A stretch of 24,914 nt of DNA. Source: a virus. Its lineage: Duplodnaviria > Heunggongvirae > Uroviricota > Caudoviricetes. The translations under genes were made by a program, and so were the position numbers. Each line of letters begins with the position of its first letter. Position 1 is the first letter of the stretch. Of the stretch, positions 1 to 16,633 are shown one piece after another. The stretch lies in IMG/VR virus record IMGVR_UViG_2548876945_000012. One strand, written 5' to 3'. A model generated the notes under the pieces. It saw only the letters and a program-made list of their open reading frames with translations. It searched no databases and was not told where the DNA came from.

Positions 1-303
1 TTCTCCCAAACCAAGGTTTTCGAGAGCCGTTTGCACAGTGCCATCCGATTTGATATCGCCAAACGGATTCTTGCGGCTTAACAGCAGCGCACGAAGTGCG
101 GTAAGCATCTGGTCATGCCGCCCTTTCTCCAGGCTGGCACCGGAGGCCTCCACCACGCTACAAAGTTCTTCCTGCAACATGTCAAAGTAGTCATCATCCA
201 GATCGGTGGCAGGTGTGCCGGTCTGGGGGTTACCACGGGTAAAACCGTTCTTACCCGCGCCGAACTTATCCTTCTGCGCGGTTTTCGTGTCTATACGATG
301 CAT
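1..303 (-). CDS. Phage tail fibre protein, N-terminal part only (gene runs off the window start)
   Basis: Reverse complement of 241..303 reads ATG CAT CGT ATA GAC ACG AAA = [21 protein letters not shown], a conserved N-terminus of enterobacterial prophage side tail fibres as I recall it; no stop before position 1. Sits at the end of the baseplate module. Confidence 0.65.
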
Positions 304-306
304 GGA

Positions 307-891
307 TTACTCCGGATATTTAAAAATTACGTAGGTATGCGAAGGGCAGAGTTTGTTAAGCACGCACTCGACAACGGTGTCGCCCCAGATACGCAGTGCG
401 GAATCACAGGGATCGCCACATGTCATCCAGGTGGTGTTGGTGGCGGCTGGCATGTTGACCTGCCAGTAATACCGCCATTCCGGCGCATTCACTGCGTCAG
501 TACAGGCCGATGAGCAGGTGAACGTGCTTTTATCGTATCGCGTGATAGTAGCGTCTGGTCTGCCCAGGGCAGCAAGCTGTGCAAGGTAAAAATCCTCATT
601 GATGCCGCCCGCCAGATTAACCTTCGCATCCAGCCGTTGCTGACGCTGGCGAAGGGTCTGTGTCCCTGCGGGAATACATTCATCCGGCAGACCGCACAGA
701 CGCTCCCAGCGGTTTATCAGTTCAGTGGTGGTGCGCGGATCCAGCTCCCGCATCAGGGCATCCGCACGCTGATGAACGCGGGTTAATGAAGGTGCCGCAC
801 CGGCAATCGCCGGATCGCTGGCTGACCATGCAGGACCGGGCGGCAACAGTGCCGATAACAGGCGGATGTAATCATCGTTTGTCACGTCCAT
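307..891 (-). CDS. Mu gp48-like tail/baseplate protein (DUF2313/YmfQ-like)
   Basis: 194-aa ORF with ATG at 891..889; size and position (last gene before the tail fibre) match Mu-like baseplate modules. Family assignment is from memory, not a search. Confidence 0.55.
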
Positions 892-1940
892 GAAATCGTC
901 CCCAGAACCGCCAGTTCATTTTTTGCAATGGAGATATTGTCCGCCGGGGCAAGCAACTGATGGCTGTATTCCCCGTTCGCACCGGAAATCGCCTCACTGA
1001 TACGCGATACCTTCAGTTCTCCCTGAGGATAACCATCACGCAGCAGGAACGAACGCAACTCTGCGGTGATGGCAGCCCGTATTTCCGGTGTGTCCGGCGT
1101 CACGCGGATATGAAAATCCACTTTATGCGCCACCGGCCTGAATACATACAAATCAGAGCCTGCCACCGGGGCCAGTGGCTCAATGTGTTGTCTTGCCGCC
1201 GTTTCCGTTGATTCTTCCGGAATGGGATTAATCAGGTCACTGCTGGCAATCATCACACCGACAGTTCCCGTTCCCATCCAGTGACGGTATGTCCATGCGC
1301 GGGTAATGCCGGGCACTTCTTTAGCCCAGACGACATAGTCCACGTCAGCCCCGCCCTGCGGCGTCCAGTAATACCGCTCAATGATGCGGGCGCGCCACGT
1401 TTCCAGATCTTCAGTATCAAATCCGCCTGTCAGGGTGTCAGCCACACCGGAAGACGGCAGACCATTCACCGGCGTGACCAGGATTAATGACGTACCGTCG
1501 TCAGCGTTACCGACCGCGCCTGAACTTGAGCAGGCGATCGGCACGCGCAGGACACCACCGGAGCTGGTTGCATCGGCAGTTGCCGTGTACTGAACCAGGT
1601 CATCGCGCTGAATAACACTCCCGGCGGTCACCTTCAGGCCATCGCTGACACCTTCCCAGCGCATATACCCGCTGGCAGCCGTGGCCCCCTTGCGCGGACA
1701 CCGTTTCATCGCAGCATGTCGCGCCAGCCAGGACTCATCGCACAGGTCAGGCAGCATGTTCATTGCCAGATAATCGATGTAACCGTAAACCGTATGCAGC
1801 GCCGCCGCATACACCTTTGCCCGCACGTCTTCATCCATGCGCCGGAGCGTGTCGCTGACGTCCAGCCTGGCGAATAAATCGTTACGGAGCATACTGATAT
1901 TTTCTGCCAGCGTCGGGCGCTGAAATTCACTGTCCGCCAT
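882..1940 (-). CDS. Baseplate J-like protein (Mu gp47-like)
   Basis: 352-aa ORF, ATG at 1940..1938, overlaps flanking genes by a few nt (operon-style coupling); size and order fit the baseplate J family. Confidence 0.65.
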
Positions 1941-2355
1941 GCGTTATCGCACTCCACAGATCATCAAAAGAAATCATTACCGGTCCGTCACGACGCCAGA
2001 GAGTGATACTGTTACCCAGTTCATTAATCCCGGTGCGGCGGATATCCAGATCAATACGGGACACCACGCCATCATCAATCATCCATTGCAGGCATTCGCG
2101 GATATACCCCCTTACCGTCTGCACCAGCTGATTGGTCAGTTTGCTGCGCTGAAGCAGCCACAGTCGGGAGCCGTAACGGTCATTCTGTACCGCAGGCCAG
2201 GTATCCCCCCACCATCCCATCGGGACGTCGGCGTTGTCATCAGGCTCCGCCCGCCGCCAGGTAAACAGGGAAATCACCACGGAGCGGGTCAGCGGATCCA
2301 GCGGTGCGCTGGCGCAGGTGCGTTTACCGTTCACCGTCAGCCACAGTTCCATCAT
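1927..2355 (-). CDS. Phage GP46-like baseplate protein
   Basis: 142-aa ORF; ATGA start/stop overlap with the upstream gene at 2352..2355; size and order match Mu gp46. Confidence 0.5.
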   Translation of the reverse strand: MMELWLTVNGKRTCASAPLDPLTRSVVISLFTWRRAEPDDNADVPMGWWGDTWPAVQNDRYGSRLWLLQRSKLTNQLVQTVRGYIRECLQWMIDDGVVSRIDLDIRRTGINELGNSITLWRRDGPVMISFDDLWSAITHGGQ

Positions 2356-2900
2356 GCCTCCATCGCTTTATCCGGTTTGTCGGTGTTACTGCCCTGACCG
2401 TTCTCTCTGTGACGATGCCCGTTATAGGCAAGCCGCATCGCTGACATGGTGGTGCCGCCGGAGTCGCACAGGTCTTTCACCTGTCCGGTCACTTCCAGGT
2501 CCATTTCAAAACGTGCTTCAGGTGCATTGCGAAACGTGATCGTTTTACCTGCACCGTCCACCACGATCCCCTCCCGGGTCAGCGTCACGGACTGCCCCTG
2601 ATCGTCATAGACAGCCACCTCACCCGTCTGCAGCCCTTTCAGGCGGTAGCGACGGTCCGACACCGTAACAACCACCGCATGAGAACGGTCGCCATCCGGA
2701 AACAACACCACCGCTTCCGCACCGCTGTTTGCCCTTGCGGTAAAACCGTAGGGTTCAAGATGTTCAACCCCGGCTTTGGGTTCACCGGCAATCAGGGACA
2801 CATCCACGGTCTGACATTTCGTGGCGGCACTGATGCTTTTCACCACGGCCCGCCCAATCAGGCCGAGGAGTTGTCGCTGCATGGCTTCAATCGTCCTCAT
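2352..2900 (-). CDS. Baseplate assembly protein V / spike (Mu gp45-like)
   Basis: 182-aa ORF, ATG at 2900..2898 overlapping the upstream stop (ATGA); N-terminal sequence resembles gpV-type spike proteins. Confidence 0.6.
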   Translation of the reverse strand: MRTIEAMQRQLLGLIGRAVVKSISAATKCQTVDVSLIAGEPKAGVEHLEPYGFTARANSGAEAVVLFPDGDRSHAVVVTVSDRRYRLKGLQTGEVAVYDDQGQSVTLTREGIVVDGAGKTITFRNAPEARFEMDLEVTGQVKDLCDSGGTTMSAMRLAYNGHRHRENGQGSNTDKPDKAMEA

Positions 2901-3979
2901 CAGAACGGGTCCTCCTGTACTCTGGCTTTTTTCTTTTTCCGCGCGCCGGGGGCTTCGGGTTCAGGCAGATAAGCATCAGGCGGGCCGACACGGATTTCCG
3001 TCAGGGTGCCGTTCTGGTCCTGAGTAAACGTGACTTCCGAAACAAGCAGTTCGGTATTGTCGAAACCACAGACCGGATCAAAGACAATCACCCGCTGGTT
3101 GGGCTGCCACAGCGTACCGTTACCCTGTCGCCAGCCCTGCACCACATAGGTGGTTTCATCCGTCCGCGCCGCCCGTTGTCGGGCTTCAAAGTCCGCACGG
3201 GCAATACAACCTGCCCCCGTAGCCTGCCCTGTCTGCCTGATATACATCGGACGGTAACGGGCAATAAATGCGTCCTCTGTGCGGGCCCGCAGCGCGGTGG
3301 TGGTGGCCTCACCGAAATCATCGTCGTTTCCGGCACGCTGCCCCGCCACCTGGTAAACAGAAAATCGCTCCCGGATACTCTTCTCCGTATCGCAGGAAAG
3401 GATGTTTTCCCCGAGTACCAGCGCGGTATGTGCCCGCGTTGAGCCAATACCGCCAATCACCAGCCTGCCGTGCGGGTCGTCATAAGCCAGCGCCTGCTGC
3501 TGACCGAGTATTTTGTTAATCACCTCGATCACCGTTTCACCGTGATCAGGCTGGACATCAGGAATAACACCCGACGGCGCACCGCTGTTCACCACCTCAA
3601 TGCCGAAGGGCGCAGCAAGCGCCTGCGCAATCTGTACCAGTGATCGTCCGTTAAACTGTGTCGGTTCGGCTGCACAGTCAATCAGGTCAGCAGTCAGACT
3701 GCGTCCGGCAATACCGGTGCTGACCGAACGGGCATCGTAACGAACGGGCGTCGCCTCCACCCAGCCGGTGATCACCCGCTCATCACCAATCAGCACCTCC
3801 ACTTTTGAACCGTTTTTAATGCGCGGCTGAAGCGTGGTAATACCCTCATCACCCGGCCACTGGCGGGTGATCTCCACACTGAAATCCCGCGCCAGCCGTT
3901 CAATACCGGCACCGATGCGCACCGATGTCCAGCCATTCCACTCCCGGCCATTTACCCGTAGCGTGACATTGTCGTTCAT
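2900..3979 (-). CDS. Mu gp44 (P)-like baseplate hub / tail protein
   Basis: 359-aa ORF, ATGA overlap with upstream gene at 3976..3979; size and order consistent with Mu P-like protein. Confidence 0.5.
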   Translation of the reverse strand: MNDNVTLRVNGREWNGWTSVRIGAGIERLARDFSVEITRQWPGDEGITTLQPRIKNGSKVEVLIGDERVITGWVEATPVRYDARSVSTGIAGRSLTADLIDCAAEPTQFNGRSLVQIAQALAAPFGIEVVNSGAPSGVIPDVQPDHGETVIEVINKILGQQQALAYDDPHGRLVIGGIGSTRAHTALVLGENILSCDTEKSIRERFSVYQVAGQRAGNDDDFGEATTTALRARTEDAFIARYRPMYIRQTGQATGAGCIARADFEARQRAARTDETTYVVQGWRQGNGTLWQPNQRVIVFDPVCGFDNTELLVSEVTFTQDQNGTLTEIRVGPPDAYLPEPEAPGARKKKKARVQEDPF

Positions 3980-5247
3980 TGCACTGGCACCTTCAGAGGG
4001 ATCACCGGCACAAAGCCGGGATGCGTAATGGCATTACGCCGGATAATGTCCGCGTCACGCGCCGCGTTATCAAACCAGGTCGCCGCCAGCACCAGCGCGG
4101 GTAAAACCTCATCCGGTGTGCGCTGAATGATCCGTGCAGACTGTTCAAGGCGCGTGTTGATATCCGCATTCAGATCTGCTTTCACCCGGCGCAGCGCCAG
4201 AAACAGCGCATCGCTGGTTGTACGGGACAACTCCTTATCAATTGCCGTATTCAGTGTGTCGCGAATGTCAGTCAGTTCTTCCCACGTCGGCAGGTCAACC
4301 GTGTTTTTCACCGCCGGTGCATTGTTCAGTGCCGGATGCGTGACGGAAGGCCAGCCAGTGCTCTGCGCGGGTGTTGTTGCCTGCCCCACTGTGGCATTCT
4401 GCATCACCGCGGAAGTTGTTGGCGCAGGCAATCGGATGACGGCATACGCCGCTTCGCTGATTGCGGTCGTACGAAGGGTGCTGGCAACCACGTTACGCTG
4501 CTGCGTCGCCGTGGCGGTGGTTTTACTGTCCGTTTTCCAGACGCCACGCGGTTGCAGATCGCTGCCGAGGCTGACACCGGAAAGCGTTTTGATCATGGTG
4601 ACCAGGTCGCTGGCGTTACCATAAAGGCGTTTCCCGGTACGCCACATTTTCTGCACCTGCTCAACGAAATTTTTGCCTGACGATGGCGGCGGCAGAAGTA
4701 CCGAGATATCACCCTGCAACAGCCTGGCGGCATCCGATACGGCAGAATCCACCACTTTCATCGCATCAGAAACATACCCAAGCATTGTGCTGGCATTACC
4801 GATAACGTCGTTCTGCACAAAATCCGCCACGCCATCGATACTGAAACCGCTGAAGCTGTCACTGATGCAGTCATCCAGTGCAGAACAGGATGACATCAGC
4901 GTCTGCGCCGTCGCCACGCCTGATGTGGGGTAAGAGAGATCTCCCGCTTCGACAAACTTCAGGTCAAAGCGGACAATACGCCCTTCACTCTTCGATGTGC
5001 TGACCCGAACTTCCCCGTCAACACAGACTTTCAACTCACCGTATGTCGGGTGGACAAGCGTGCCGGGACCGGGTTTATTCAGCGCGTCAATCAGGCGATC
5101 GCGCTGGTCAAAGCAGTCATCTCCCACCACATAAGCCGTGATGGACGGGCGGAAAGTGACTTTTCCCAGATCTTCGGTATAGGGTTTGTCGCGGTTCGGA
5201 TACCACACAACCGGGATCGACGGGCAGCAGTTCAGCCACTTCGCCAA
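3976..5247 (-). pseudogene. DNA circulation protein (Mu gp43/N-like), apparently N-terminally truncated at a deletion junction
   Basis: 423-aa ORF lying where gp43 sits in Mu-like tail modules. Its 5' end overlaps, in another frame, the 3' end of the portal-fragment ORF, and there is no tape-measure gene upstream. The ATG at 5247 is probably fortuitous. Confidence 0.45.
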
Positions 5248-5608
5248 ATGCTTTCACTTTGTAGGCGTAAAAGTTTCCCCGCAGACACAGACAGGTGACC
5301 ACCAGCTCCCAGAACTCCTGCGGCGTCATATAGCCATTGGGATGCGTGGAGATCAGCTTATGCAGACGTTCGCCGGTGGCCCTCTGTTTCAGGCTGCCGT
5401 TCAGGTGATACAGATTGCAGGGCAACATCCCGACCGACTCTGCCAGCACCCTGACGCAGGAAAAAACCGCCGTCAGTCGCATGGCCCGCTGGCTGCTGAT
5501 CTGCTTTCCGGTATAGGTGTCATATGACAGCCCGATAGCCTCCGCCAGCTCTGCTGGCGTGGTCACCGGTGCGTCACTTTTTCGTTGAAATAATCCCGAA
5601 AAGAACAC
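5117..5608 (-). pseudogene. Portal protein (HK97 family), N-terminal ~125 codons only, then out-of-frame read-through
   Basis: Translation MFFSGLFQRKSDAP...LRGNFYAYKVKAFGEVAEL looks like an HK97-type portal N-terminus; resemblance is lost near 5215..5230 and the ORF stops at 5117. GTG start at 5608 preceded by GGAGG, overlapping the upstream stop by 1 nt. Confidence 0.55.
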
Positions 5609-5790
5609 TATTTACCTCCGCCGACAGACGACTGTGTACGGTCGAGATATCGCGCCACCAGCCACGACCAGAACAGGCACAGCGCCCCGGCAACAACAAA
5701 ACCCGCCGGGGGATAAATCAGCCAGGCACCATACGCCAGCAAAAGCGCACCCAGCACGCCCACCAGAGGCGCGAAAATCAGCATGATCAT
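5608..5790 (-). CDS. Small membrane protein (two predicted TM helices), unknown function
   Basis: 60-aa ORF, ATG at 5790..5788 preceded by GAGGT; hydrophobic throughout; lies between TerL and the portal fragment. Confidence 0.45.
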
Positions 5791-5801
5791 AATTACCTCA
5801 G

Positions 5802-7535
5802 TTAAAGCGAGCGGATCCCGTAGGACTCAATGTGATCAGACAGCGTGTCTTCTTTCTCGTACAGCATGGCTCTGCCAACCGCCATAATCAGCGCAACTGC
5901 ACCATCGATTTTGTTTTCCGCCTGCTCTTTGACAGGCTTCACCACATCATCGTTACCCGGAATGGTTTTGCCGACCACGTTGCCGATACACCAGGTCATG
6001 ATGGGATTGCCATCATGATGAAAGCGCCCCGATTCAATTGCCGCTTCCAGCTCTTTCATCGGGTCGGACATGTTGGTGTAGTTCTGAATGATGGTGACGG
6101 GGTTCAGGTCTTCATCAGCAAGGTCATGTGAGAGCCCGGTCGCCCCGAAGGGGTCGATGGGTGACTCACTGACCGGGCTGATTTTGTTCGCCGCTTTGGC
6201 CTCCTCGAGGATGTAGCGATAATCCACCTCCGCACCATCGGTAACGGTCAGAACGCCCATTTCCACCCATTTCTGAAAGCGTTCGGCTGTCCGTCGATCT
6301 TCATTTTTCTCGACGCTGTACACCGTGTCATACGGTACCCAGAAACGCGGGGCCACACTGTAGTAATGCGTTTTACCGTCAATCTCGCGGGTATAAAGTC
6401 GCGCCATGCTGTTCATATCCAGCTTACGCGCCAGGTCAAAGGCCAGAATGCACGGCTGCCCCTCGAACTGCTCAAGGGTCAGTGATTTATCCTCGCAGCT
6501 CTGCCAGCTCACCAGGTTGAAATACGCCGAACGCGCCGACACCCAGATATTGAGGTGTTTTGTTTTAAAGACGTTTGCCAGACGGGCGTTATTTTTCGCA
6601 CGCTGCTGCTGACTTAACAAAAATTCGCGATAAACCGACACGCCAATATTTGGATTGGCTTTTTCCAGCACCTGCGGGTCGGTCCAGTCGTCACCTTCAT
6701 CAACGGTATAGATGATCCCGAACAGTTCATCGTTTGGTACCGAACCGTTGAGCATCTCGATGACTTCCCGCCGTTTGTCGTAGCACGGCCCCTCAATGTT
6801 GTACCCGGCGGTGGTGATAGCCCACATCAGTGGCTGACGTCGCGCCCCCATCCCGGTAAGCATCGTGGTATAAAGCGCATCGGTGGCGTGCTCGTGATAT
6901 TCATCCACCACCGCACAGTGGGGCGATGAACCATCACCGGGGTTACCGATCAGCGGTTCAAACCGCGCGCCATCCTCCGGACGGTTCATGTTTGAGGCGT
7001 TAACCTCAATCCCGAACGCTTCCGTCAGCATGGGCGTGCGTTTACACATCAGTCTTGCCGGACGAAAGACTTCCCATGCCTGTTTCTCCGTCGTGGCACC
7101 GGAATACACTTCTGCGCCGAACTCGTTATCACAGGCAAAACAATACAGGGCGACACCGGCAGAGATTGCCGATTTGCCGTTCTTACGGGGGATTTCGGTA
7201 TACACCTCACGGAAGCGGCGCAGCCGGGAGCCTTTATTGACCCAGCCAAACGCACAGCAGATCACAAAGAGCTGCCACGGCTCCAGCGTGATGGGCATTC
7301 TCTTGAATGCCCACTCACCCTTGGTGTGCGGCAACAGCTGAATAAATTTGGCGGCCCGTTCAGCCAGGTCCTTGTCGAAGCGGTAACGAAACGACTTACT
7401 TTTTTCCGCCATCAGGTCATCAAGATGGCGCTGGCAGACCTGAATCACAAACTGGCAGGCCACAATCTTTCCGCGCACAACATCACGGGCATACTGATTG
7501 GCAGCATTTACGTTGGGGTAAGATTTCCGGCTCAT
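5802..7535 (-). CDS. Terminase large subunit
   Basis: 577-aa ORF; ATG at 7535 overlaps the TerS stop (ATGA); sequence and length typical of phage TerL. Confidence 0.85.
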
Positions 7536-8026
7536 GACTCGATGATTTTCAGAAACGGGTTAGTGGCTTTCTTCTGCCCCGCCAGGCCAATCAGACGCTG
7601 GCGGCTGCTGGGGTCGAGTCCGAGCATTGCCCCCGTGCTGCTCATCTCGGACTCCTGTTCTTTTTTGGCGGTCAGCTCCGGATTTTTGACCCTGCCGCCC
7701 ATTGCACCGGTGATGGTGTTGCCCTGTATGGCAATATTTTTCACGGCACGTCGCCAGAACTCGTAGGCCACGCACCACCGCTCAAGCACCGCGAGGTCAG
7801 TCACGCACAGCAGGCCCTGACCGCAGAGTTCTTTGGCTGTCAGTTGCCACATGATCGTGGCGAGAGGGAGATCTTCTTCAGCGAACCACTCCGGTGGCTC
7901 AACACCTTTGATGGGCGTAAAAACAGGTTCATCTTTATTCAGGGCTCGCTTGCCGGGGTTTCCGGCCAGCGCCTTGCGCGCCGTTGGCTTGGGGCGACGC
8001 TCGGAACGCCCCGCCGTTCCAGCCAT
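7532..8026 (-). CDS. Terminase small subunit (P27 family-like)
   Basis: ORF 7532..8035 begins with GTG; the ATG at 8026..8024 with AGGAG 8 nt upstream is the likelier start (164 aa). Immediately upstream of TerL, downstream of HNH. Confidence 0.7.
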
Positions 8027-8151
8027 ATGCGGCACTCCTGGTTAAATTTCATTTTTCGCGGGTATAAAAAAACGATGGGGCGGGCAGTCCGGAAGACGTC
8101 AGGTCACAGGGATTTGACCCGCCCCTCCCCTCTGGCAGTAGGAACTGGTTC

Positions 8152-8502
8152 TTACTTCAACCGTTCACGGGCCGTCTTCGCCTTATGACACGGCCAGCAC
8201 AGGCTCTGCAGATTGCTGTCGGCATCAGTGCCGCCATGCGCTTTAGGGATGATGTGGTCAACGGTTTTCGCCTCGCGCACCACACTGGCACGCAAACACA
8301 ACTGACACAGGCCTTTGTCACGCTTCAGTACACGCCCCCGGATAACATCCCATTTCGAACCATAACCGCGCTGGTGTCGGGACTGGCCTGGCTTGTATTG
8401 CTTCCAGCCTTTGCTTTTGTGGCTTTCGCAATAGCCTGACGGGTCAGTCGTGGTATGGCGGCAGCCGCGAACGCGGCAGGCTTTTGGGGTTCGTGGAGGC
8501 AT
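8152..8502 (-). CDS. HNH endonuclease (terminase-associated)
   Basis: 116-aa protein with Cys pairs (CRVRGC...C...C, CQLC, CWPCH) and a DHIIPKAHGG motif typical of HNH nucleases; HNH-TerS-TerL order as in HK97-like phages. Confidence 0.8.
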   Translation of the reverse strand: MPPRTPKACRVRGCRHTTTDPSGYCESHKSKGWKQYKPGQSRHQRGYGSKWDVIRGRVLKRDKGLCQLCLRASVVREAKTVDHIIPKAHGGTDADSNLQSLCWPCHKAKTARERLK

Positions 8503-8629
8503 CTATTATCCCTGTAGTTTTCGTTAAATATCTAACCATAACTGCAATCAAAAACCGCTTTAACACGGTTTGTTAAATAGACTTTTCAATCCAATGAACA
8601 AACGGCAAATAAATACCAATCGTTAATTT

Positions 8630-9085
8630 TCATTTGAATACAAACGGTTCTGAAAGAATATTATGACAAATATATTTCGCCTGAATGCTATTATCTCTCA
8701 TTCTAATATATTCTTTGTGGGCAACAGATAAAGAACGACAACCGCTGTTTACACTTGGGTATTTTTCCAACATATGCTCGCATATCAAAAAAGCATTATT
8801 AATAGCATTTAATTTATGGCTTAACTCTCGTAGCTCGGCTCTTTTTTCAATACGAACATTACGACTAAGAGATAAAGGTAGCTGTGATAATGCATTTGAA
8901 TAATCAGCCACTGCCATTTTCAGAGCCATTTTGGCCTTCAGAGCCTCCTGTCGCCGCCAAACATTCATTGCCCAAAAACCTAATATAACAGTTAAAATTG
9001 AACCTAAAGCCGATACAACTGAACCTAAAGCCGATACAGCAGACCACTCTGTTCCCGAATGCCAGTTAAGTAATGTATGCCACAT
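8630..9085 (-). CDS. Hypothetical membrane protein (moron), unknown function
   Basis: ORF 8630..9097 starts with GTG; ATG at 9085..9083 has GGAGG 6 nt upstream (151 aa: MWHTLLNW...). One N-terminal TM helix then a charged, probably helical domain. AT-rich by eye, with AT-rich non-coding flanks. Confidence 0.5.
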   Translation of the reverse strand: MWHTLLNWHSGTEWSAVSALGSVVSALGSILTVILGFWAMNVWRRQEALKAKMALKMAVADYSNALSQLPLSLSRNVRIEKRAELRELSHKLNAINNAFLICEHMLEKYPSVNSGCRSLSVAHKEYIRMRDNSIQAKYICHNILSEPFVFK

Positions 9086-9418
9086 AATAACCTCCACTTA
9101 ATGAAAAGGTTATTTTATCGTAACTAAGCACCACAGGCACTATCTAAAGATTAGATGCCCTACCAGTTGTACCATCGATAATCCGCACAAAAATGATACG
9201 TAATGAACCAACTGATAACTAACTCTGCTATGCACATTTTTAATCATCAACAAACGATTTGTATTAACTTCCTCTCTCATACTAGCCCAAAAGGTTGGGC
9301 TAATAATTAATCACGATACATATTCTATGTGATGACATACTTTATGTAAGCTTTTACATTACACTATAGAAGCTGGAGCACCTAAACTTTATGCATCATA
9401 TCTTTATAATAAATAACA

Positions 9419-9697
9419 TCACTCTGGATATTTATACTTTGAATGCAAAATAGCGCGCCGTGATTCAATATTTCTGATTCCGGTTTTATCAAAATTACAT
9501 TGTCCTAACGCTGACAACAGAGCCACATTCAACTCCAGACTAGCACCATATGTCAGTGAACTGGGTATAATTGGAATCGGTGTTTCAGAAGTCAGGCTGG
9601 CTGGCAGTGGTGCCGCCGGAATGTTCACGTAAACTGTCCGCGTACTTCCGCAACCGGTCAGCAGCGGTAGCAGGCACAGGACGTGAAGCGCAATCAT
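9419..9697 (-). CDS. Rz1-like o-spanin (lipoprotein)
   Basis: Frame overlapping the 3' part of Rz; internal Met gives MIALHVLCLLPLLTGCGS with lipobox LTGC followed by a proline-rich segment. Start codon uncertain. Confidence 0.55.
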   Translation of the reverse strand: MIALHVLCLLPLLTGCGSTRTVYVNIPAAPLPASLTSETPIPIIPSSLTYGASLELNVALLSALGQCNFDKTGIRNIESRRAILHSKYKYPE

Positions 9698-9977
9698 CAC
9701 TCGCAACAGCCACTTTGATATATTCCTGGGTTCTCTGTGACTCCAGTGCGATCTGCTGTTTTGCATGTTGATTCGCCTCCTGAATGATGTTCGTTATTGC
9801 CATAGTACGCAGAACATTCGCGGTGATAGCCTCAGTAGAATCAGCTCTCTGTTCCGCAGCGTCAGCACGCTTCTGCTCCTCCAGAAACTTTCCATGATAG
9901 TGATTCGCTGACCAGACAAGACCACCAGCAACACAAGCAATAAACGTTAAAATGAGCGCCCAATAACTCATCTTCAT
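9585..9977 (-). CDS. Rz-like i-spanin
   Basis: 130-aa protein with N-terminal TM helix and charged coiled-coil-like remainder; ATGA overlap with the endolysin stop at 9974..9977. Confidence 0.7.
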   Translation of the reverse strand: MKMSYWALILTFIACVAGGLVWSANHYHGKFLEEQKRADAAEQRADSTEAITANVLRTMAITNIIQEANQHAKQQIALESQRTQEYIKVAVASDDCASRPVPATAADRLRKYADSLREHSGGTTASQPDF

Positions 9978-10588
9978 ACCAGCAGCGCCGCCCGCGCCTT
10001 GTTGTATCGGACCTTACGATCCTCAATACCGTTCAGACCGCCGTTAATGATGCGCGTAACACGGTTAATATCGGCACCGTAGATCATGCAGCCTTTAGAG
10101 GTGTAGAACCATGCAGCTGAGCGCGCCGCCTGTAGCTCCTGTTCCAGTTGTTCAGGTGAAGTCACCAGATCTAACTTCAGCGCCGCACCACAGATGCGAT
10201 AATTATGGAGGCCAGTGATTTGAATTAATCCTCTACCACGATATTTCCAGCCATCACCGGGGGCTTTGTTACCCAGTCGGTTGCTATACACCAGATTGGC
10301 AATAGCATCCTGACGAGCTGCATGTCCGGATGTTCTGCCAAGGGCATCAGCCTGCTGCTGTGTGATCCTCTTTCCGAACGTCGCCACCAGCGCAGATGGT
10401 GTGTAGTTAAAATTTTCAACTACGGCGCTAAACCCCATCGACTCATGGCCTACCTGAGCGATAAACATTGCCTGATCCGCGGGTACTGTAATGCCGAATT
10501 CCTTCATCGCCGCATCAATGTGCGGAAACCAGCGCGCAGCCAGCCCGGCACTAATACCAGCCGCCTTTTGAAATAATTGTTGGTTCAT
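9974..10588 (-). CDS. Endolysin, glycoside hydrolase family 19 (chitinase-like lysozyme)
   Basis: 204-aa protein; sequence typical of GH19-type prophage endolysins as I recall them; start overlaps the holin stop (TAATG). Confidence 0.8.
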   Translation of the reverse strand: MNQQLFQKAAGISAGLAARWFPHIDAAMKEFGITVPADQAMFIAQVGHESMGFSAVVENFNYTPSALVATFGKRITQQQADALGRTSGHAARQDAIANLVYSNRLGNKAPGDGWKYRGRGLIQITGLHNYRICGAALKLDLVTSPEQLEQELQAARSAAWFYTSKGCMIYGADINRVTRIINGGLNGIEDRKVRYNKARAALLV

Positions 10589-10869
10589 TAGTGCCTCAGA
10601 TGATCAACCAAACGTGCAACGTTGCCTCTGACGGCCACCAGCACGGAAAGAAAAATAGTATTCGCCACGATAATGAGCCATGAGGAGTGAGGATAAATCC
10701 CACAGAGATAGGCCAACGGAACAGCACTGTATGTAACAGTAATCAGCCAGGCTAAACGTGAAACCCAAGGACGATGCCGCGAATCACCACGACGATAAAA
10801 CATCAGAGTAATAACAACACAAGCACATAACAGCGCATTAATAGTTGCTGTCGGGTCATTTAGCTCCAC
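10588..10869 (-). CDS. Holin-like small membrane protein
   Basis: 93-aa hydrophobic protein with 2-3 TM helices directly upstream of the endolysin; GTG start at 10869 with GGGAGG 5 nt upstream. Confidence 0.5.
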   Translation of the reverse strand: MELNDPTATINALLCACVVITLMFYRRGDSRHRPWVSRLAWLITVTYSAVPLAYLCGIYPHSSWLIIVANTIFLSVLVAVRGNVARLVDHLRH

Positions 10870-11242
10870 CTGAACCTCCCCGGCGCGTTATGAGCGCCAC
10901 CAGCGAGCCGATATCCTGATTATTCAGGAACGTCAGGATTTTAACGGCTAAAGCAGAGACGATTACGGCACCAATAGCATCCAGAGGTTTATCACTGTAT
11001 CCGGTCAAGTTTGCCAGCTTGGAGCCAACCAACCCAGAGCAAAGGATCCCAGCAATATATGACACGATAAAATATGCCAGTCGACGCGATGCACTCAGAT
11101 CTGCTGCTGTTGCTATATAGAATACAGCCCCTGCAAATGCGCCAAATACAACGCCGTAATCAGTTCCGGTCAGCAGTCCATAAATACTAGCGCCCGTTAG
11201 GGCTCCACCAGCTAACCCTGTGCCGGAAATCGGATCGGACAT
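10856..11242 (-). CDS. Holin-like membrane protein (Gly/Ala-rich TM helices)
   Basis: ATG at 11242..11240 (MSDPISGTG...) preceded by AAGAGGTGG; 128 aa; overlaps the next holin-like gene by 14 nt. Confidence 0.5.
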   Translation of the reverse strand: MSDPISGTGLAGGALTGASIYGLLTGTDYGVVFGAFAGAVFYIATAADLSASRRLAYFIVSYIAGILCSGLVGSKLANLTGYSDKPLDAIGAVIVSALAVKILTFLNNQDIGSLVALITRRGGSGGAK

Positions 11243-11350
11243 TAGCCACCTCTTATTGCAGTGAGTCCTCTCAGAAATAGAAATGAGAGGAATAAAAAAG
11301 GCCACCATTTGGCAGCCATAGAATTGATGTAATTATAACTAATTCATTAA

Positions 11351-12157
11351 CTATTTCTTAATGATGCTATTTAACATTTCTAATGCAAAAAGCAACATGG
11401 AGCTAATAAAATATAATATAACCGCACTGGCAATCGCTCCAATTATAGCCTGGACACTCCAGTGAAAGTAATTTTTACCATTAATAACAAACTTAACACT
11501 AGGAAACAAAAAGTCGATAAGCTTAATTATTAATGGAATAGCAAAGCTCCATAAGTTCGAAAACAAAATAAAGATACAAATAAATGATAAAGCAAATGCA
11601 CCATCGATTGATAGTTTTGGCGCCAGTTTTGAGGCTGTCCATAAGCTAAGCAAAAAGCCAACTGTCACACCTGAAATCTGGATACTTAACATAGTCCAAG
11701 CTGTTCTAAAAAATCTAAATTTATTTTTGCACTTGTTAAGTAAATCCTGAATCGTAATCCATAACGAGTCAACCCACTCATTATCTTCCGATGCTACAAT
11801 CATTGTGCTGCTATTTGAATTCCTCTCATCAATTCGTAGCTCCATCCAAGATCCATTCATCCTGTTAGACTGTCGACTTTGATAAGTTTCAATAGTAAAA
11901 ATTATTTGATCAATCCTAGTGGCCTGTCTAAAGTATTTCACAAGCTCACCGATAGAATCAACTTTATATCCCTTACCATCGAACAAAATAAAAAAAACAC
12001 ATTGAGCACAAACTTCCCTACTTTCCTTTTGAGCTTGCTCATTCATTTTAACGCAGCGTTCGACAATTGCCGTGCTTAAGCTAATCAAGCTATCTTCATT
12101 TATAGAAACACCTGAAATATTCTTGCTTCTGTAAAAATATGACACTTTCGATTCCAC
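11351..12157 (-). CDS. Hypothetical protein: soluble N-terminal domain (~150 aa) plus three C-terminal TM helices; accessory (moron) gene
   Basis: 268-aa ORF in an AT-rich island; first codon is GTG (internal ATG at codon 38 is an alternative start). Hydrophobic segments near aa 165-185, 195-220 and 240-265. No family recognised. Confidence 0.5.
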   Translation of the reverse strand: MESKVSYFYRSKNISGVSINEDSLISLSTAIVERCVKMNEQAQKESREVCAQCVFFILFDGKGYKVDSIGELVKYFRQATRIDQIIFTIETYQSRQSNRMNGSWMELRIDERNSNSSTMIVASEDNEWVDSLWITIQDLLNKCKNKFRFFRTAWTMLSIQISGVTVGFLLSLWTASKLAPKLSIDGAFALSFICIFILFSNLWSFAIPLIIKLIDFLFPSVKFVINGKNYFHWSVQAIIGAIASAVILYFISSMLLFALEMLNSIIKK

Positions 12158-12322
12158 TCCGCACCAGTCTCGATTTAGCGCAGGTTAACATAACCACTTC
12201 ATTGGTAGAAGAAAAGAACTCTTCTTGTCAGAAAGCTACTGTGATATCCCTAAACCTGCAGATGATACAGAACAAAATTTAAGCATCAATTGTAGGCGAT
12301 TTTAAATTCACTTTACAGTTTA

Positions 12323-12340
12323 GGCTGCCAATTGGCAGCC
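12323..12340. promoter_or_regulatory. Perfect 18-bp palindrome GGCTGCCAATTGGCAGCC between the two moron genes
   Basis: Read directly; lies 15 nt past the stop of the 89-aa gene and upstream of the 268-aa gene; no U-run follows on either strand. Confidence 0.4.
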
Positions 12341-12354
12341 GATTGAAGCAGAAA

Positions 12355-12624
12355 TCAATGAGTGCTCATCGATGAATTTTTTTCAGCGCCAATCTCACTC
12401 AAAAAAGCAAAACCTTTTGACGTTATCTCATTAGCAATCAATCCACCTTCGGCAGATTTGCTTCGTATAACATCGATAAAACCTATATCAGCAAGATCTG
12501 AAATAGCAAAATTAACCTCTTTTGCTGAGAGATGAGGTAATGATGCAGCCTGAATTCTAGAATCCTTTGGCTGCAATTCATTCACTCGACGTAGTATTTC
12601 AAGATGGATAGAGGTCAGTTTCAT
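12355..12624 (-). CDS. Hypothetical small protein, possibly winged-helix DNA-binding
   Basis: 89 aa; ATG at 12624..12622 with AGGAG 6 nt upstream; helix / helix / beta-hairpin pattern by eye; AT-rich; followed by an 18-bp perfect palindrome. Confidence 0.5.
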   Translation of the reverse strand: MKLTSIHLEILRRVNELQPKDSRIQAASLPHLSAKEVNFAISDLADIGFIDVIRSKSAEGGLIANEITSKGFAFLSEIGAEKNSSMSTH

Positions 12625-12707
12625 AATGTTCTCCTGTTTTTAATGTTGTTTTACAGAAAACATTATAACACATTGATTTTGATGTAGATTGAATAGAAAA
12701 AAACCAT

Positions 12708-12730
12708 AAAAAAACCTCGCAATAGCGAGG
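12708..12730 (-). terminator. Intrinsic terminator downstream of Q (tR'-like)
   Basis: Minus strand reads CCTCGC-tatt-GCGAGG followed by TTTTTTT (plus coordinates 12730..12715 stem, 12714..12708 U-run). Confidence 0.55.
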
Positions 12731-12761
12731 TCGTAAAAATCGTTCAACGATAGATACACAA

Positions 12762-12797
12762 GCCCCATCGTTGAGAAAATCTTATCCATATTTTTTG
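12762..12797 (-). promoter_or_regulatory. Candidate late promoter PR' (sigma70-like) between Q and tR'
   Basis: Minus strand TTGTGT (12797..12792), 17-nt spacer, TAAGAT (12774..12769); both hexamers are weak matches. Position after Q and ~50 nt before the terminator fits the lambdoid PR'-tR' arrangement. Confidence 0.3.
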
Positions 12798-12838
12798 AGA
12801 AACACAAGCATTATGTCGTTATCTTCGGCGAAAATCGC

Positions 12839-13591
12839 TTATCTCGTCACCCTTCTCAATTGTGCTTCAGCGTAAGCTTCCTCCTGCCAGCACTTTGTAA
12901 CCAGTTTATCAATGACATCTGCATATCCTTTGTACCACTGATAATCCGTCAGGTCTGGTACCAGCTTCTGGACATGAAGCCGCGCCAGTGTGGTTGGTAA
13001 ACGGCTAAACCGGTTTCCATTGCAACGCCCACAAATCTTATAAACAGGCGTGCCATGAAGCCGGGTTCTTTTTTCATCCAGGACAATACCTTTACCCTTA
13101 CACCCTCTGCACGCTGTGCTGACTTCTCCCTTACCATGACAATGCTGACATAGTTCCTTCACCCACTCTTCCTTGATAACAGACTCCCCGCTTCTGGAGT
13201 GTTTCACCACTTCGCGCAATACATTATGAAATCCAGTACCAGCACAATGCTCACAGCGAGCCTTACTTGCCGCAGACCTGGAATAATCAGCAAAGGCAAA
13301 ATTCACAAGGTAAGGAATGATCTGTAGCCGGGTTTCTTCACTCAATTTGTTCAATGTCGGGTTATCCAGTGCCATCGCGTAATTGAGCAGACCTTCAATC
13401 GCAAACTGAGGATCCTGAACACCAACTTTTGCCAGGAATAAGGCAAACCCAAGCGGTGCTTTCGACTGCACCATCCCCTGCGCAGCCATCACATCTGTAA
13501 TTGTTAAACCACCCGAGCCTGTCGCCGGTGCGTCATCACTCAATTTTGGAGATTTTGGGGAGTAATATTTTGGTAAGGCTTCAAGGTTCAT
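12839..13591 (-). CDS. Late antiterminator Q
   Basis: ORF 12839..13633 begins with GTG; ATG at 13591 with GGAG upstream gives 250 aa. Cys-rich zinc-binding-like motifs (CEHCAGTG, CQHCHGKG, CRGCKGKG, CGRCNG); position directly upstream of PR'/tR' and the lysis genes. Confidence 0.65.
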   Translation of the reverse strand: MNLEALPKYYSPKSPKLSDDAPATGSGGLTITDVMAAQGMVQSKAPLGFALFLAKVGVQDPQFAIEGLLNYAMALDNPTLNKLSEETRLQIIPYLVNFAFADYSRSAASKARCEHCAGTGFHNVLREVVKHSRSGESVIKEEWVKELCQHCHGKGEVSTACRGCKGKGIVLDEKRTRLHGTPVYKICGRCNGNRFSRLPTTLARLHVQKLVPDLTDYQWYKGYADVIDKLVTKCWQEEAYAEAQLRRVTR

Positions 13592-13604
13592 GCTCGTTCT
13601 CCAC

Positions 13605-14600
13605 TTACGCCAGTACGCCAATTGCCAGCGCACGATCGATAAAACGAAATATCAGCTCCAGCTGGGAGCCATACTTCTCTTCAAATGCCACGGTATCCGC
13701 ATGCAGCTCGTCGTGATGCTTTCTGCACAAAGGCAACACAAAGAGGTCATGCGCTTTTGTACCCATCCCACCCTGACCGTGGCCTATCAAGTGGTGGGGA
13801 TCATCAGCAGGCTTTCCACAACATGCACACGGCTGTGTCTTAACCCAGCGCGTGTACTTTTCATTAACCCAGCGGCGACGTTTTGGGCGTAACATAAAAG
13901 ACTCCGGCGACTCCGGATCCACTTTCAGCGTCAGCACCTTTTTCGCCTTATCCTGGATGATGCTGGTGGCAGGAACCGAAGGCACAAGGTCACTTTCCCG
14001 GGTGACAGACGGCACAACAGGCTTTGGTAATCTCAGTGCCTTACGGGCTGCACTTTCCGGTAAGGCATCCGCCAGGTCATTACGAATCAGCCACCAGCAC
14101 AGTTCCGGCATTGTCACAACGTGACTATCATCAAAACCGAGATCCCGACGCACAACAGACAACACCCAGCGGGCACAGTTATCCGTTGCCATTGATTCCA
14201 GCCGTTCCGTGAACTGATCGCGCAGCTGGTTATCACAGTGCCAGCACAGACGGATTGCGCCCGGAGCGTGTCGCATTGTGGTCATGTTCTCGCTATGCCA
14301 GTCGGAATGAGGCCACTGGCAGCCTTTTTCACGAAGTAACCAGCTTTCAAGACATTCCACGCCACCAGCACGACGGATCACTGCCTCATTGCGGAACACG
14401 GCCCGAACAGCAGGATCATCCGCCAGCGGTTGTGATGCCGCGGGAACGGCACCACTGGCGAAAGATGAATAACGTTCCGGCTCAGGCTCCAGCAGTACAC
14501 GCCCCTGCATAAACAGGGGCATCAGCTCTGAACCTGGTCTGAACAATACGATCCCCATACGCGGGGCTATTTCAGGGGTCAGTAGTGCTCTCACGGTCAC
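13605..14600 (-). CDS. DUF968-like prophage protein (nin region)
   Basis: 331-aa ORF; GTG start at 14600 one nt after the KilA-N stop (alternative ATG at 14558); C-terminal Cys/His cluster (CACCGKPADDPHHLIGHGQGG...CRKHHDELH). Family assignment from memory. Confidence 0.5.
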   Translation of the reverse strand: MTVRALLTPEIAPRMGIVLFRPGSELMPLFMQGRVLLEPEPERYSSFASGAVPAASQPLADDPAVRAVFRNEAVIRRAGGVECLESWLLREKGCQWPHSDWHSENMTTMRHAPGAIRLCWHCDNQLRDQFTERLESMATDNCARWVLSVVRRDLGFDDSHVVTMPELCWWLIRNDLADALPESAARKALRLPKPVVPSVTRESDLVPSVPATSIIQDKAKKVLTLKVDPESPESFMLRPKRRRWVNEKYTRWVKTQPCACCGKPADDPHHLIGHGQGGMGTKAHDLFVLPLCRKHHDELHADTVAFEEKYGSQLELIFRFIDRALAIGVLA

Positions 14601-14601
14601 C

Positions 14602-15411: not shown

Positions 15412-15430
15412 ACTTCGTTTCTCCTCTTAA

Positions 15431-15820: not shown

Positions 15821-16143
15821 ACTTTCAGGCCCCTCTCATGTAACCAGTGGGCTGCACGCAGCCTGGCGTTTTCCTCACCGGCAAGCAGTGAGCGGATAAT
15901 CCCGACCGCCTCGCTGTCGTCGTCCTTCACCGCGGTATGAAGCGTTATCCCCCGGGCCACGCCACGCTTTATCGTGATGACGCCTTTTTTCTCCAGCGCA
16001 CGAAGATGCTCCACCGCTGCATTCACCGAACGGTATCCCAGCATGGTTGCCACCTCCTGATTGGTTGGCGGGAAGCCACGTTCTTTCTGATAAGAAATCA
16101 GCATATCCAGCACCTGCTGCTGGCATTGAGTTAACGTCGTCAT
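15817..16143 (-). CDS. LexA N-terminal DNA-binding-domain-like protein (no peptidase domain)
   Basis: ATG at 16143 (MTTLTQCQQQVLDML...), 108 aa; winged-helix resembling the LexA DNA-binding domain; translationally coupled (TAATG) to the upstream gene. Confidence 0.5.
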   Translation of the reverse strand: MTTLTQCQQQVLDMLISYQKERGFPPTNQEVATMLGYRSVNAAVEHLRALEKKGVITIKRGVARGITLHTAVKDDDSEAVGIIRSLLAGEENARLRAAHWLHERGLKV

Positions 16144-16631: not shown

Positions 16632-16633
16632 AA

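Follow-up and report, generated by a model that had tools for sequence, protein, structure and literature searches.

A 9,360-bp deletion and a recurrent portal-gene breakpoint in an SfV/e14-family prophage of Escherichia coli

The prophage at thrW-proA and its deletion joint

In ∼23.5 kb of the window analyzed here, a 24,914-nt stretch of IMG/VR virus record IMGVR_UViG_2548876945_000012, the genes are arranged as in an ordinary prophage, and the element extends beyond the left end of the window. At the attachment end of the prophage, a tyrosine integrase gene (22293-23456, + strand) is followed by thrW, a tRNA-Thr(CGT) gene (23471-23546, - strand), and by the adjoining host gene proA (23661-24914), which is 100% identical to E. 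coli proA. The position of thrW next to proA is the attachment site of the SfV-type phage family (PMC3636060), and thrW-proA of E. coli is the integration site of the SfV/e14-family prophage in the window. The interval from the integrase stop (23456) to thrW (23471) measures only 14 nt, which leaves no room for gtrA, gtrB or gtr(type) between integrase and attP and places the element outside the serotype-converting subgroup (SfV, SfI, SfII, SfX).

The packaging module supports the family assignment. It is encoded on the - strand and comprises an HNH endonuclease gene (8152..8502), the 10-nt cohesive end TGCCCGCCCC (8077..8086), which is the cos of the SfV/SfI family (PMC3636060), a P27-family terminase small subunit gene (7532..8035) and an intact 577-aa terminase large subunit gene (5802..7535), with a ymfR-like gene for a 60-aa membrane protein beyond it (5608..5790, - strand). 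The phages SfI, SfII, SfIV and SfV show 96.5-97% nucleotide identity to the window over 2.2-2.9 kb (HNH-terS-terL-portal), and an intact E. coli prophage, L001, is colinear in gene order and 96.9-98.1% identical. The cos overhang and the thrW site beside proA are shared with SfV, SfI, SfII and SfIV of Shigella flexneri and with ST64B of Salmonella. These phages are complete, plaque-forming or inducible, 37-41 kb in length and equipped with gtr O-antigen genes, whereas the window element has no such genes between integrase and thrW and lacks 9.4 kb of morphogenesis genes. Intact SfV/ST64B-type forms have an HK97-like head and a Mu-like contractile tail, and it is the HK97-like head genes and the Mu-like sheath, tube and tape-measure genes that are absent from the window element. 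Their absence is a secondary loss through a 9,360-bp deletion and not a sign of different ancestry.

Alignment with L001 defines this deletion. Window positions 1..5202 correspond to L001 16102..21303 (98.1%) and positions 5195..8502 to L001 30656..33961 (96.9%), with 9,360 bp missing from the window. In a three-way comparison with L001, gp43-derived DNA runs up to 5200 and portal-derived DNA begins at 5203; the TA dinucleotide at 5201..5202 is the only sequence common to both parents and marks the joint. The original prediction, made from the window alone, had proposed a deletion junction between a portal fragment and a truncated DNA-circulation gene at 5100-5260. The junction is real and lies inside that interval, although its exact point is 5202|5203 and not 5215-5230, where portal resemblance had been thought to end.

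The portal remnant (5203..5608, - strand) comprises nt 1-406 of the gene, codons 1-136 of 413; if the TA at 5201-5202 is assigned to the portal as well, it corresponds to nt 407-408 of the gene. It is 96.9% identical to the L001 portal, and the Pfam Phage_portal match (PF04860) of the ORF covers only profile positions 2-93 of 321. As had been anticipated, the portal frame ends at 5117, in a chimeric 163-codon ORF (5117..5608, - strand) consisting of portal residues 1-136, 27 out-of-frame residues from gp43 DNA and a stop. The predicted protein is identical to OSL62756.1 of E. coli H383. A near-full-length gp43-like ORF in another frame had likewise been noted correctly: the 5'-truncated baseplate hub/DNA-circulation gene (3976..5200, - strand) keeps codons 35-442, 408 of 442, and has lost M1-E34. 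Candidate starts are a TTG at 5247, within portal-derived DNA, and a GTG at 5130, which is called in other assemblies; in the product, the DNA_circ_N match begins at profile position 27 and the match to PHROG 184 'baseplate hub' at position 37.

The lost interval takes in the end of the portal gene (codons 137-413), the genes for protease, capsid, connector, sheath, tube, chaperone and tape measure, and gp43-like codons 1-34. Each of the 13 genes annotated for this stretch in the intact relative is either missing from the window or cut short there. Between TerL and gp43 the window holds no head, connector, sheath, tube or tape-measure gene, in agreement with the original prediction. Because every gene of these classes has been lost, the element is predicted to be incapable of building virions by itself. 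The intact portal is 413 aa long in more than 1,000 complete E. coli genomes, and an assembly artifact is contradicted by the same 163-aa junction protein in many independent assemblies, Mb-scale contigs among them.

The remaining modules are present as ORFs, as had been stated for regulation, replication, lysis, terminase and baseplate, and the cos overhang is kept as well. They include the integrase, CI/Cro/CII-like regulators, an O-like replication protein, Q, holins/endolysin/Rz, HNH-TerS-TerL and the baseplate genes. The latter are all full length on the - strand: gp44 (2900-3979), gp45 (2352-2900), gp46 (1927-2355), gp47/J (882-1940) and gp48/YmfQ (307-891).

Recurrent breakage in the portal gene

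The endpoint on the portal side is non-random. Some 30 defective relatives with different joints, the K-12 beeE/jayE junction among them, are broken in portal nt 399-411, an interval of ∼12 nt; the original prediction had recognized a deletion joint here and missed the recurrence of its portal breakpoint. In 27 distinct database proteins (28 with the window ORF), collected mainly by a protein search seeded with the portal N-terminal fragment that favors short products and misses most mirror events, portal residues are common up to positions 133-137 and are followed by 9-141 unrelated residues. Two further junctions, L101 and L103, were found at the DNA level. The chance that at least 28 of 45 breaks would fall within 5 of the 413 codons is 2e-42, whereas a control search with portal residues 137-290 returned scattered breaks only, at 183, 258, 264, 312, 327 and 400. 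Possible secondary derivatives, as opposed to independent events, are P0017 relative to K-12, and P0012 relative to P0032. Full-text literature searches found no description of this portal hotspot.

The main crossover is the TA of GGTACC at portal nt 407-408, where most junctions lie, each with a different partner. This TA is common to both parents in 16 of 21 mapped junctions against 3.6% expected (P = 2e-19); the parents were approximated by one intact prophage, L001, so single microhomologies may be off by one base, and with this proxy the TA is not seen in L101 and L103. In the mapped junctions position 406 is always portal-derived and position 409 always partner-derived, giving a fixed crossover nucleotide with core identity. 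A second, small junction cluster lies at TGT, portal nt 400-402. The corresponding ST64B sequence is GTGGTGCC, without the TA that the window-type portal has; ST64B was considered as a natural no-TA control, but its 6 copies in IMG/VR are too few.

On the intact prophage map the partners lie on the same strand, 567 bp to 17 kb downstream, with the exception of two junctions whose partner DNA comes from the opposite strand and which are therefore inversions. In all there are deletions spanning 0.6-17 kb, a single deletion in mirror image and two inversions. In the mirror deletion (L237), ymfM is joined to portal nt 407 through a common TACCG. For one inversion (L236) both junctions can be read; they overlap by 3 bp and no base is missing. 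A conservative reciprocal exchange is seen in this inversion, while in the deletions the excised product is lost. One hotspot event occurred in a phage whose tail is lambda-like and whose terminase and cos are different.

The findings are best explained jointly by a genuine 9,360-bp deletion in an SfV/e14-family prophage and a recurrent portal breakpoint at which DNA is broken and rejoined to ectopic partners, an account we consider likely. The GGTACC motif of the portal gene would be the place of repeated breakage and rejoining, with the crossover anchored on 2-6 nt of identity that nearly always include the TA, and the outcome would be a deletion on either side or an inversion. The L236 inversion, having lost no base, points to conservative break-and-rejoin and not to resection of free ends. 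The excess of deletions over inversions, about 21 to 2, is not predicted by symmetric reciprocal exchange at a palindromic TA alone.

Use of the site at least 25 times independently, with a fixed two-base crossover, implies a specific mechanism. It is tentatively suggested that the GGTACC of portal codons 135-137 may be the target of a specific cleavage-and-rejoining activity (an unrecognized recombinase, nuclease or topoisomerase encoded by the host, by a prophage or by a competing element) that recurrently disarms prophages by deleting or inverting morphogenesis genes. If so, K-12 e14 and the window element would be products of one directed process and not of random decay. Were an enzyme responsible, this would constitute a new route of prophage inactivation and give a practical marker by which e14-like remnants could be dated and typed.

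Replication template switching would dispense with a site-specific enzyme: a polymerase stalling at the GT-rich GGTTGTGTGGTACC would leave a nascent end that re-primes on a few identical bases elsewhere in the prophage. Short microhomologies anchored at one spot are what such a process would leave, and an extended imperfect similarity to GGTACCGAAG with a one-base bulge is present in several partners, those of the window (TATCCGAA), of L103 (TAACCGAA) and of P0024. The site, however, forms no stable hairpin (z -0.5 to +0.6) and contains no terminator or known RNA element, the deletions reach 17 kb and one is a mirror image, and a perfectly reciprocal inversion is hard to obtain by slippage. 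Template switching is therefore regarded as doubtful.

Recurrent break-and-rejoin at the portal site resembles known phage recombination systems in part. Parkinson and Davis reportedly described, in 1971, Int-promoted lambda b deletions with one fixed endpoint, and Iida and Hiestand-Nauer are said to have described Cin/Gin recombination at quasi-sites in 1986-87. Rearrangements driven by Int, Cin and Gin share with the hotspot an endpoint fixed to the nucleotide, variable partners and a need for few identical crossover bases, and they too give both deletions and inversions, with one hotspot exchange being conservative. Their fixed endpoint, however, is the recombinase's own att, cix or pix site, whereas the hotspot lies in the portal gene, bears no resemblance to pix, is not convincingly similar to an att core and implicates no recombinase. 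E. coli also has hotspots of short-homology illegitimate recombination, for example in lambda bio/Spi- phage formation and at gyrase-associated sites. These resemble the portal site in their microhomologies of 2-6 nt, kilobase deletions and site preference, but each of them is either a gyrase cleavage site or two sites that share 9-13 bp of homology, whereas the portal gene presents a single site with at least 25 partners and as little as 2 nt of identity.

Individual agents were compared with the hotspot. The only dyad symmetry is GGTACC itself and a weak CCGGT/ACCGA pair, and neither dyad-symmetric recombinase arms nor a cognate recombinase was found at the hotspot. A Pin invertase quasi-site is rejected, since pix (TTCTCCCAAACC-AA-GGTTT, core AA) is unlike it. 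Pseudo-cos cleavage by the phage's own terminase/HNH is rejected as well: CTTCGGTAC on the opposite strand agrees with the cos nick context CTTCCGGAC in 7 of 9 positions, but this predicts an end at nt 405 and not 408, the match has about P = 0.05 after multiple testing, and the phage with a different cos also underwent the event. A DNA hairpin or cruciform is not supported by folding energies, which are no better than those of shuffles, and no promoter, terminator or known RNA was found at the hotspot. The prophage operator half-site TTGTACC matches at 6 of 7 positions, about chance level after multiple tests.

Enzymatic cleavage by known systems fared no better. For the Type III enzyme EcoP1I (AGACC, cutting 25-27 nt away) the distance fits, but the partners have no AGACC and other AGACC sites should be equally hot. 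GGTACC restriction is rejected, with several other GGTACC sites in the prophage and partners that are neither GGTACC nor GTAC. A gyrase cut at G|GTAC|C with a 4-bp stagger would give products other than those observed, and no sensitive/resistant allele pair indicative of a homing-endonuclease target exists at the site among intact phages. Chi (GCTGGTGG on the coding strand) occurs at 5299..5306 (- strand), ∼100 nt inside the kept portal fragment, and a second Chi is at 5655-5662. In this orientation the kept side would be protected, and more than 18 kb on the deleted side would not; RecBCD/Chi is rejected as the setter of the endpoint given this 100-nt distance inside kept DNA and the mirror deletion. 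P0101, a portal-like segment in a DUF927 gene of a small integrative element, has its junction at about residue 146 without GGTACC and is unrelated.

Clonality of the deletion and fate of the element

Taken alone, the window deletion describes one more defective prophage and is ordinary. What its breakpoint reveals is a rearrangement site that recurs, is precise to the nucleotide and lies in a very common prophage family of E. coli; prophage decay is usually modeled as random deletion. About a quarter of complete E. coli genomes carry the family, and intact relatives are found in 1,091 of 5,426 (roughly a fifth).

Exact matches to the 163-aa junction product were obtained in 70 index blocks, and the contigs that carry it number at least 24, two of them 4.85 and 5.01 Mb long; OSL62756.1 was deposited from an E. 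coli H383 assembly of 43 contigs. Copies of the window deletion type carry 1-8 substitutions relative to the window over 8-15.6 kb and are 99.95-99.99% identical. Judged by this near-identity, the deletion type appears to be a young clonal variant with no measurable history of selection. The proposal that the element is in a domesticated state, with its accessory genes as the selected function, therefore finds no support: the low-GC cargo ORFs match only PHROGs of unknown function and no PADLOC defense model. Preservation of such an element is also not what its relatives indicate, as K-12 e14 and L093 show further decay instead.

The element could alternatively be a helper-dependent, satellite-like derivative packaged in the capsids and tails of a co-resident intact relative. 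Its cos, HNH-TerS-TerL, lysis, replication, immunity and integrase modules are intact, and the frequency of intact relatives given above would provide helpers. Against this, the copies are nearly identical and apparently clonally inherited, thrW is the sole integration site shown for the window junction type, and the baseplate genes it has kept serve no purpose without tube and sheath. Known satellite hallmarks are missing, and Pfam scans of the window revealed no P4-like, PICI or cf-PICI marker, which makes the satellite reading unlikely.

Selection in place of a mutational bias would require the ∼136-residue, BeeE-like portal fragment to be useful, for instance as a dominant-negative block to related phages. 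The fragment does persist in very reduced elements (L093 keeps little beyond portal residues 33-136), and BeeE is kept in all K-12 genomes. A benefit at the protein level cannot, however, explain nucleotide precision with a common TA, nor does it account for the 9-141-residue unrelated tails, the mirror event that discards the fragment or the inversions at the same point. Selection of the fragment is accordingly considered very unlikely, and recurrent break-and-rejoin remains the preferred explanation of the endpoint.

Comparison with e14 of E. coli K-12

The e14 element of K-12 (ymfR-beeE-jayE-ymfQ) belongs to the same phage family as the window element and is 96.5-98.2% identical to it at the nucleotide level in the common parts. 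Like the window, it has a 136-residue portal fragment followed by an out-of-frame tail. BeeE and the window portal both read ...LLPVDPGCVV before diverging (BeeE ends after residue 136), and the two portal breakpoints are identical to within the common GGTA. In e14 the fragment runs into the middle of gp47 (jayE), so that gp43-gp46, kept in the window, are also gone, and a second deletion has fused the replication gene to terL (ymfN). The integration sites differ: e14 lies in icd with a different integrase, and the window element at thrW-proA. The icd integration that defines e14 (icd 3' duplication, intE) is not shared by the window element, whose integrase region has no match to K-12 e14.

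The substitutions, together with the different att sites (icd, thrW), show the K-12 and window junctions to be of independent origin. Across the 1,736 sites compared, 31 differ; 13 of these lie within the 406-bp portal fragment, one of them at a distance of 7 bp from the joint. The window and e14 are each more similar to several intact phages than to one another. Direct descent of K-12 e14 from the window type is excluded by the same substitutions and att sites. A broader form of shared descent would have one ancestral deletion create the portal end and further deletions from that joint produce the other junctions, K-12 e14 included. Consistent with it, K-12 e14 equals the window minus 1670-5199 and 6939-17341, the jayE partner matches the window joint by 5 nt (ATACC) and the intact portal by only 4 nt, and P0017 and P0032 resemble small secondary changes of existing joints. 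This is contradicted by the 13 substitutions and the closer intact phages, by integration sites and integrases that differ between elements, and by the event in a phage with another terminase, cos and tail type. Moreover, most partners (portal C-terminus, protease, capsid, sheath, tape measure) lie within DNA that the window has already lost, so these junctions are not derivable from the window type. Shared descent is thus extremely unlikely.

The least credible alternative is Type I CRISPR self-targeting, for which the geometry read from the sequence, an AAG followed by CTTCGGTACCACACAACCGGGATCGACGGGCA on the window + strand of the intact parent, would represent a type I-E PAM and protospacer with the TA at positions 7-8 and Cas3 degrading towards the deleted side; but no such spacer occurs in any register in the arrays of 5,426 complete E. 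coli genomes, prophage-free genomes have no match of at least 28 nt to the 110 nt around the site and K-12 genomes match at a single place, Cas3 deletions do not begin at one fixed nucleotide, and neither the mirror deletion nor the reciprocal inversion is expected.

The window element is a relative of e14 that has decayed less. It retains both blocks that e14 has lost, of 3.5 kb and 10.4 kb, namely gp43 to the 5' part of gp47 and terL to the replication gene, which makes the anatomy of the e14 pseudogenes beeE, jayE and ymfN readable. The 403 nt that precede the break on its N-terminal side are found in 1,343 complete E. coli genomes, where they nearly always extend to the break itself; the 397 nt beyond it are found in 1,095 and the K-12 junction in 284.

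The portal-gene deletion in the window

All late genes of the window lie on the minus strand, where four ORFs are consecutive: TerL (577 aa, 5802-7535), a YmfR-like ORF (60 aa, 5608-5790), a chimeric portal ORF (163 aa, 5117-5608) and a gp43-like ORF (423 aa, 3976-5247). The window was compared with the intact related prophage of E. coli JX21CE8 (L001). Window 1-5202 aligns to L001 16102-21303 at 98.1% identity and window 5195-8502 to L001 30656-33961 at 96.9%; the two matches are colinear, and 9,360 bp are therefore absent from the window. In a base-by-base comparison with both parents, the joint reads GGTTCGGA-TA-CCACACAACC, the TA at window 5201-5202 being the sole bases common to the two. 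According to the L001 annotation, the lost interval comprises portal codons 137-413, the prohead protease, the major capsid protein, a small ORF, the head-tail connector, the head closure protein, a hypothetical protein, the tail terminator, a DUF2635 protein, the sheath, the tube, a tail assembly protein, the tape measure, a further small ORF and codons 1-34 of the 'DNA circularization' gene (gp43).

The 163-aa ORF consists of portal residues 1-136 followed by 27 wrong-frame residues read from gp43 DNA, and it covers just positions 2-93 of the 321-position Pfam portal model. The gp43-like gene begins at its own codon 35; in its product, similarity to DNA_circ_N sets in at profile position 27 and similarity to the PHROG 'baseplate hub' model at position 37. 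The L001 alignment, the 9,360 missing bp and the truncated domain coverage bear out the original prediction of a deletion junction between the portal and DNA-circulation genes; portal resemblance had been placed as fading near 5215..5230, and here the junction stands, with the joint itself 10-25 nt further left. The large terminase gene of L001 (31262-32994) is annotated as frameshifted although the prophage is otherwise intact, and this reference relative may itself be non-functional.

The window-type deletion is real and not an artefact. The assembly collection has its exact 163-aa product in 70 index blocks, and two of the 24 contigs examined measure 4.85 and 5.01 Mb; the protein is deposited as OSL62756.1 from E. 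coli H383 (43 contigs), which settles the earlier concern over misassembly. The gene order TerL, YmfR, portal fragment, gp43, gp44 was identical in 9/9 returned loci extending that far. The junction occurs in none of the 5,426 RefSeq complete E. coli genomes and was not seen in a species-representative scan. Occurrence in many assemblies but absence from complete genomes indicates a real variant limited to a minor lineage. Across 8-15.6 kb, ten window-type loci show 1-8 substitutions each relative to the window, and an IS has inserted in two of the ten; the clone is young. In two loci with the window-type deletion (L006 and L007), an IS3-family element is inserted in the KilA-N/DUF968 region at window position ~14553, which shows continuing decay of the clone.

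Recurrence of the portal breakpoint

Neither defective prophages nor microhomology deletions are unusual. The interest here lies in the recurrent breakpoint and not in the deletion as such. The truncated portal gene of the K-12 prophage e14 has long been annotated. Three segments of the window, 1-1669, 5200-6938 and 17342-19629, have their counterpart in e14, which thus resembles the window without 1670-5199 and without 6939-17341. The latter gap is the known chimeric ymfN (oweE/aaaE); relative to the window, this deletion (L002, the e14 locus, 10402-10404) joins an O-like replication gene to terL through a short T.ACC identity and removes ~10.4 kb, including the nin genes, Q, lysis genes, cos, HNH and terS that the window, unlike e14, retains. 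The beeE/jayE junction of e14 reads GTGTGGTA followed by TATGCG and that of the window GTGTGGTA followed by TCCGAA, so that the portal nucleotide is identical. Shared descent does not account for the two joints: of 1,736 aligned positions, 31 differ between K-12 and the window, and 13 of the 31 fall inside the 406-bp portal fragment, including one at 7 bp from the joint; the intact phages L075, L079 and L030 are nearer to the window than e14 is; and the two elements have different att sites and integrases.

Querying the protein collection with portal residues 1-136 retrieved 27 distinct proteins, each of which keeps to the portal as far as residue 133-137 before passing into a different, unrelated tail; the window's own ORF brings the junction types to 28. 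Mapped on L001, the same-strand partners are the portal C-terminus, protease, capsid, head closure (two events), hypothetical protein, terminator, sheath (two events), tape measure (two events), gp43 N-terminus (the window), gp43 C-terminus, gp46, gp47 (two events), gp47/48 region, tail fibre and pinE. Such same-strand joints represent deletions, from 567 bp to 17 kb in size; two tails come from the opposite strand, which makes them inversions. Two more junctions, in loci L101 and L103, emerged from DNA pattern scans. A control search with portal residues 137-290 gave scattered breaks, at most two per codon, and the probability that 5 of 413 codons would take 28 or more of 45 breaks is 2e-42. 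The N-terminal-side 403 nt occur in 1,343 complete E. coli genomes, extending to the break in all but one, and the C-terminal-side 397 nt in 1,095; the K-12 junction is present in 284 and the other junctions in ~7.

Three tails that had stayed unmapped on L001 extend the range of contexts. In L095, the deletion ends just upstream of an intact gp43, while in L094 the portal fragment is fused to a lambda K-like gene in a phage with a different terminase and cos. L093 (CP057860.1, 1874767-1887225) is a proA-thrW prophage with the same 387-aa integrase as the window; all that is left of it is early genes, a portal fragment spanning residues 33-136, genes for tail-fibre assembly and a type IV restriction gene (GmrSD), and its downstream joint is again at GTGTGGTA, ~40 nt from a pix-like site.

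Several other rearrangements were also noted. The partner ends of three independent events (proteins P0028 and P0025 and the L236 inversion) lie within ~50 nt at L001 27260-27315, in the region of the head-closure and adjacent hypothetical genes (annotated 26515-27021 and 26996-27406). CCCGGTT is present both there and in the left flank of the hotspot, and this stretch may be a secondary warm spot. The 837-aa annotated 'portal protein' of E. coli E92 (L092, NZ_CP119734.1, locus 5564-8077) looks like an upstream unrelated ORF, presumably terminase, fused in frame to the portal from ~residue 142, with its break ~21 nt downstream of the hotspot. A small integrative element adjoining folD (L096 8001-8672, Logan SRR18508063) encodes a 223-aa protein that joins a portal-like stretch (67% identity to residues 90-145) to a DUF927 primase-like domain; this junction lies away from the hotspot.

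Sequence signature and candidate agents

The TA at portal nt 407-408 is common to 16 of the 21 mapped junctions, against an expected 3.6% (P = 2e-19). Identity to its left is at chance level and to its right slightly above chance, and the partners tend toward an R-TA-Y consensus (11/16, P = 0.008). A second, minor crossover cluster lies at TGT, nt 400-402. The site acts in either direction: in locus L237, the ymfM start is joined to portal nt 407 through a common TACCG, so that genes for replication, lysis and the terminase are lost and the portal C-terminus stays. In L236, a single contig shows both joints of an inversion of L001 27260-30669; each joint has a 3-bp overlap, with zero bases lost or gained, a pattern that points to conservative break-and-rejoin rather than to resected ends.

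The hotspot sequence GTGTGGTACCGAAGCTTAAC is essentially invariant among 81 intact copies. Salmonella ST64B encodes the identical protein but has TGCGTGGTGCC at the hotspot, altering both crossover points; no ST64B-type junctions were seen, in a sample too small to serve as a control.

The best-supported reading, a descriptive one, is that the TA of the portal GGTACC is a preferred point of breakage and rejoining for which two-base identity is required. A 2-nt staggered cut at this TA would fit the products; serine recombinases and GIY-YIG nucleases make such cuts. The main rival is template switching at a stall site. Tested and found wanting as causes were a hairpin; a promoter, terminator or known RNA at the hotspot; the element's own cos cleavage; Pin acting at pix sites; CRISPR spacer targeting; EcoP1I and GGTACC restriction; a homing endonuclease, judged by allele pattern; and Chi. 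Three resemblances each reach only about P = 0.05 allowing for the number of comparisons: the hotspot to the cos nick context, an AGACC site 25-27 nt from the hotspot, and the GGTACC to the operator half-site TTGTACC at 18771-18789 (6/7), a likeness that may be chance. Full-text searches, with the original e14 genome description outside their scope, returned no published account of a common nucleotide-precise breakpoint.

Identity and gene content of the element

At its right end the window carries proA (100% identity to E. coli), and ahead of it lie tRNA-Thr(CGT) and a tyrosine integrase; this is thrW, the attachment site of Shigella phages SfV, SfI, SfII and SfIV (PMC3636060). The packaging module shares 96.5-97% identity with these phages, and their 10-nt cohesive end TGCCCGCCCC (PMC3636060) is found at window 8077-8086. 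Full-length ORFs encode a CI-like S24 repressor, Cro-like and CII-like proteins, YmfM, an O-like replication protein, RusA, KilA-N, DUF968, Q, two holins, endolysin, Rz, HNH, TerS, TerL and baseplate gp44-48, in agreement with the intact regulation, replication, lysis, terminase and baseplate modules originally predicted. Judged by these ORFs, the element appears competent to switch, excise, replicate and lyse; it is predicted to be unable to make heads or tails.

Low-GC islands at window 8500-9500 and 11000-13000 (34-39% GC vs ~56%) contain ORFs of 155, 268 and 89 aa (8630-9097, 11351-12157 and 12355-12624), likely morons. They match only PHROGs 6169, 30208 and 32916, of unknown function, with a weak DUF2513 match, and no PADLOC model matched them. 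The proposal of domestication with selected accessory genes is unsupported, because the clone is too young for selection to show and the cargo is of unknown function.

Between the divergent CI-like and Cro-like genes lie a perfect palindrome, TTGTACC-TTAAC-GGTACAA (18771-18789), and the related ATGTACCTCCGGTATACAT (18721-18741), presumably operators. A Pin crossover site, TTCTCCCAAACC-AA-GGTTTTCGAGAG (1-26), stands at the very start of the window, with the invertible tail-fibre segment and pin past the window's left edge. Beyond that edge, after the tail-fibre genes, several window-type carriers (L003-L010, locus 17.7-20.5 kb) have a gene for an 869-870-aa AAA_15/AAA_13/SMC_N-like ATPase, a possible defence cargo gene, where e14 has pin and mcrA.
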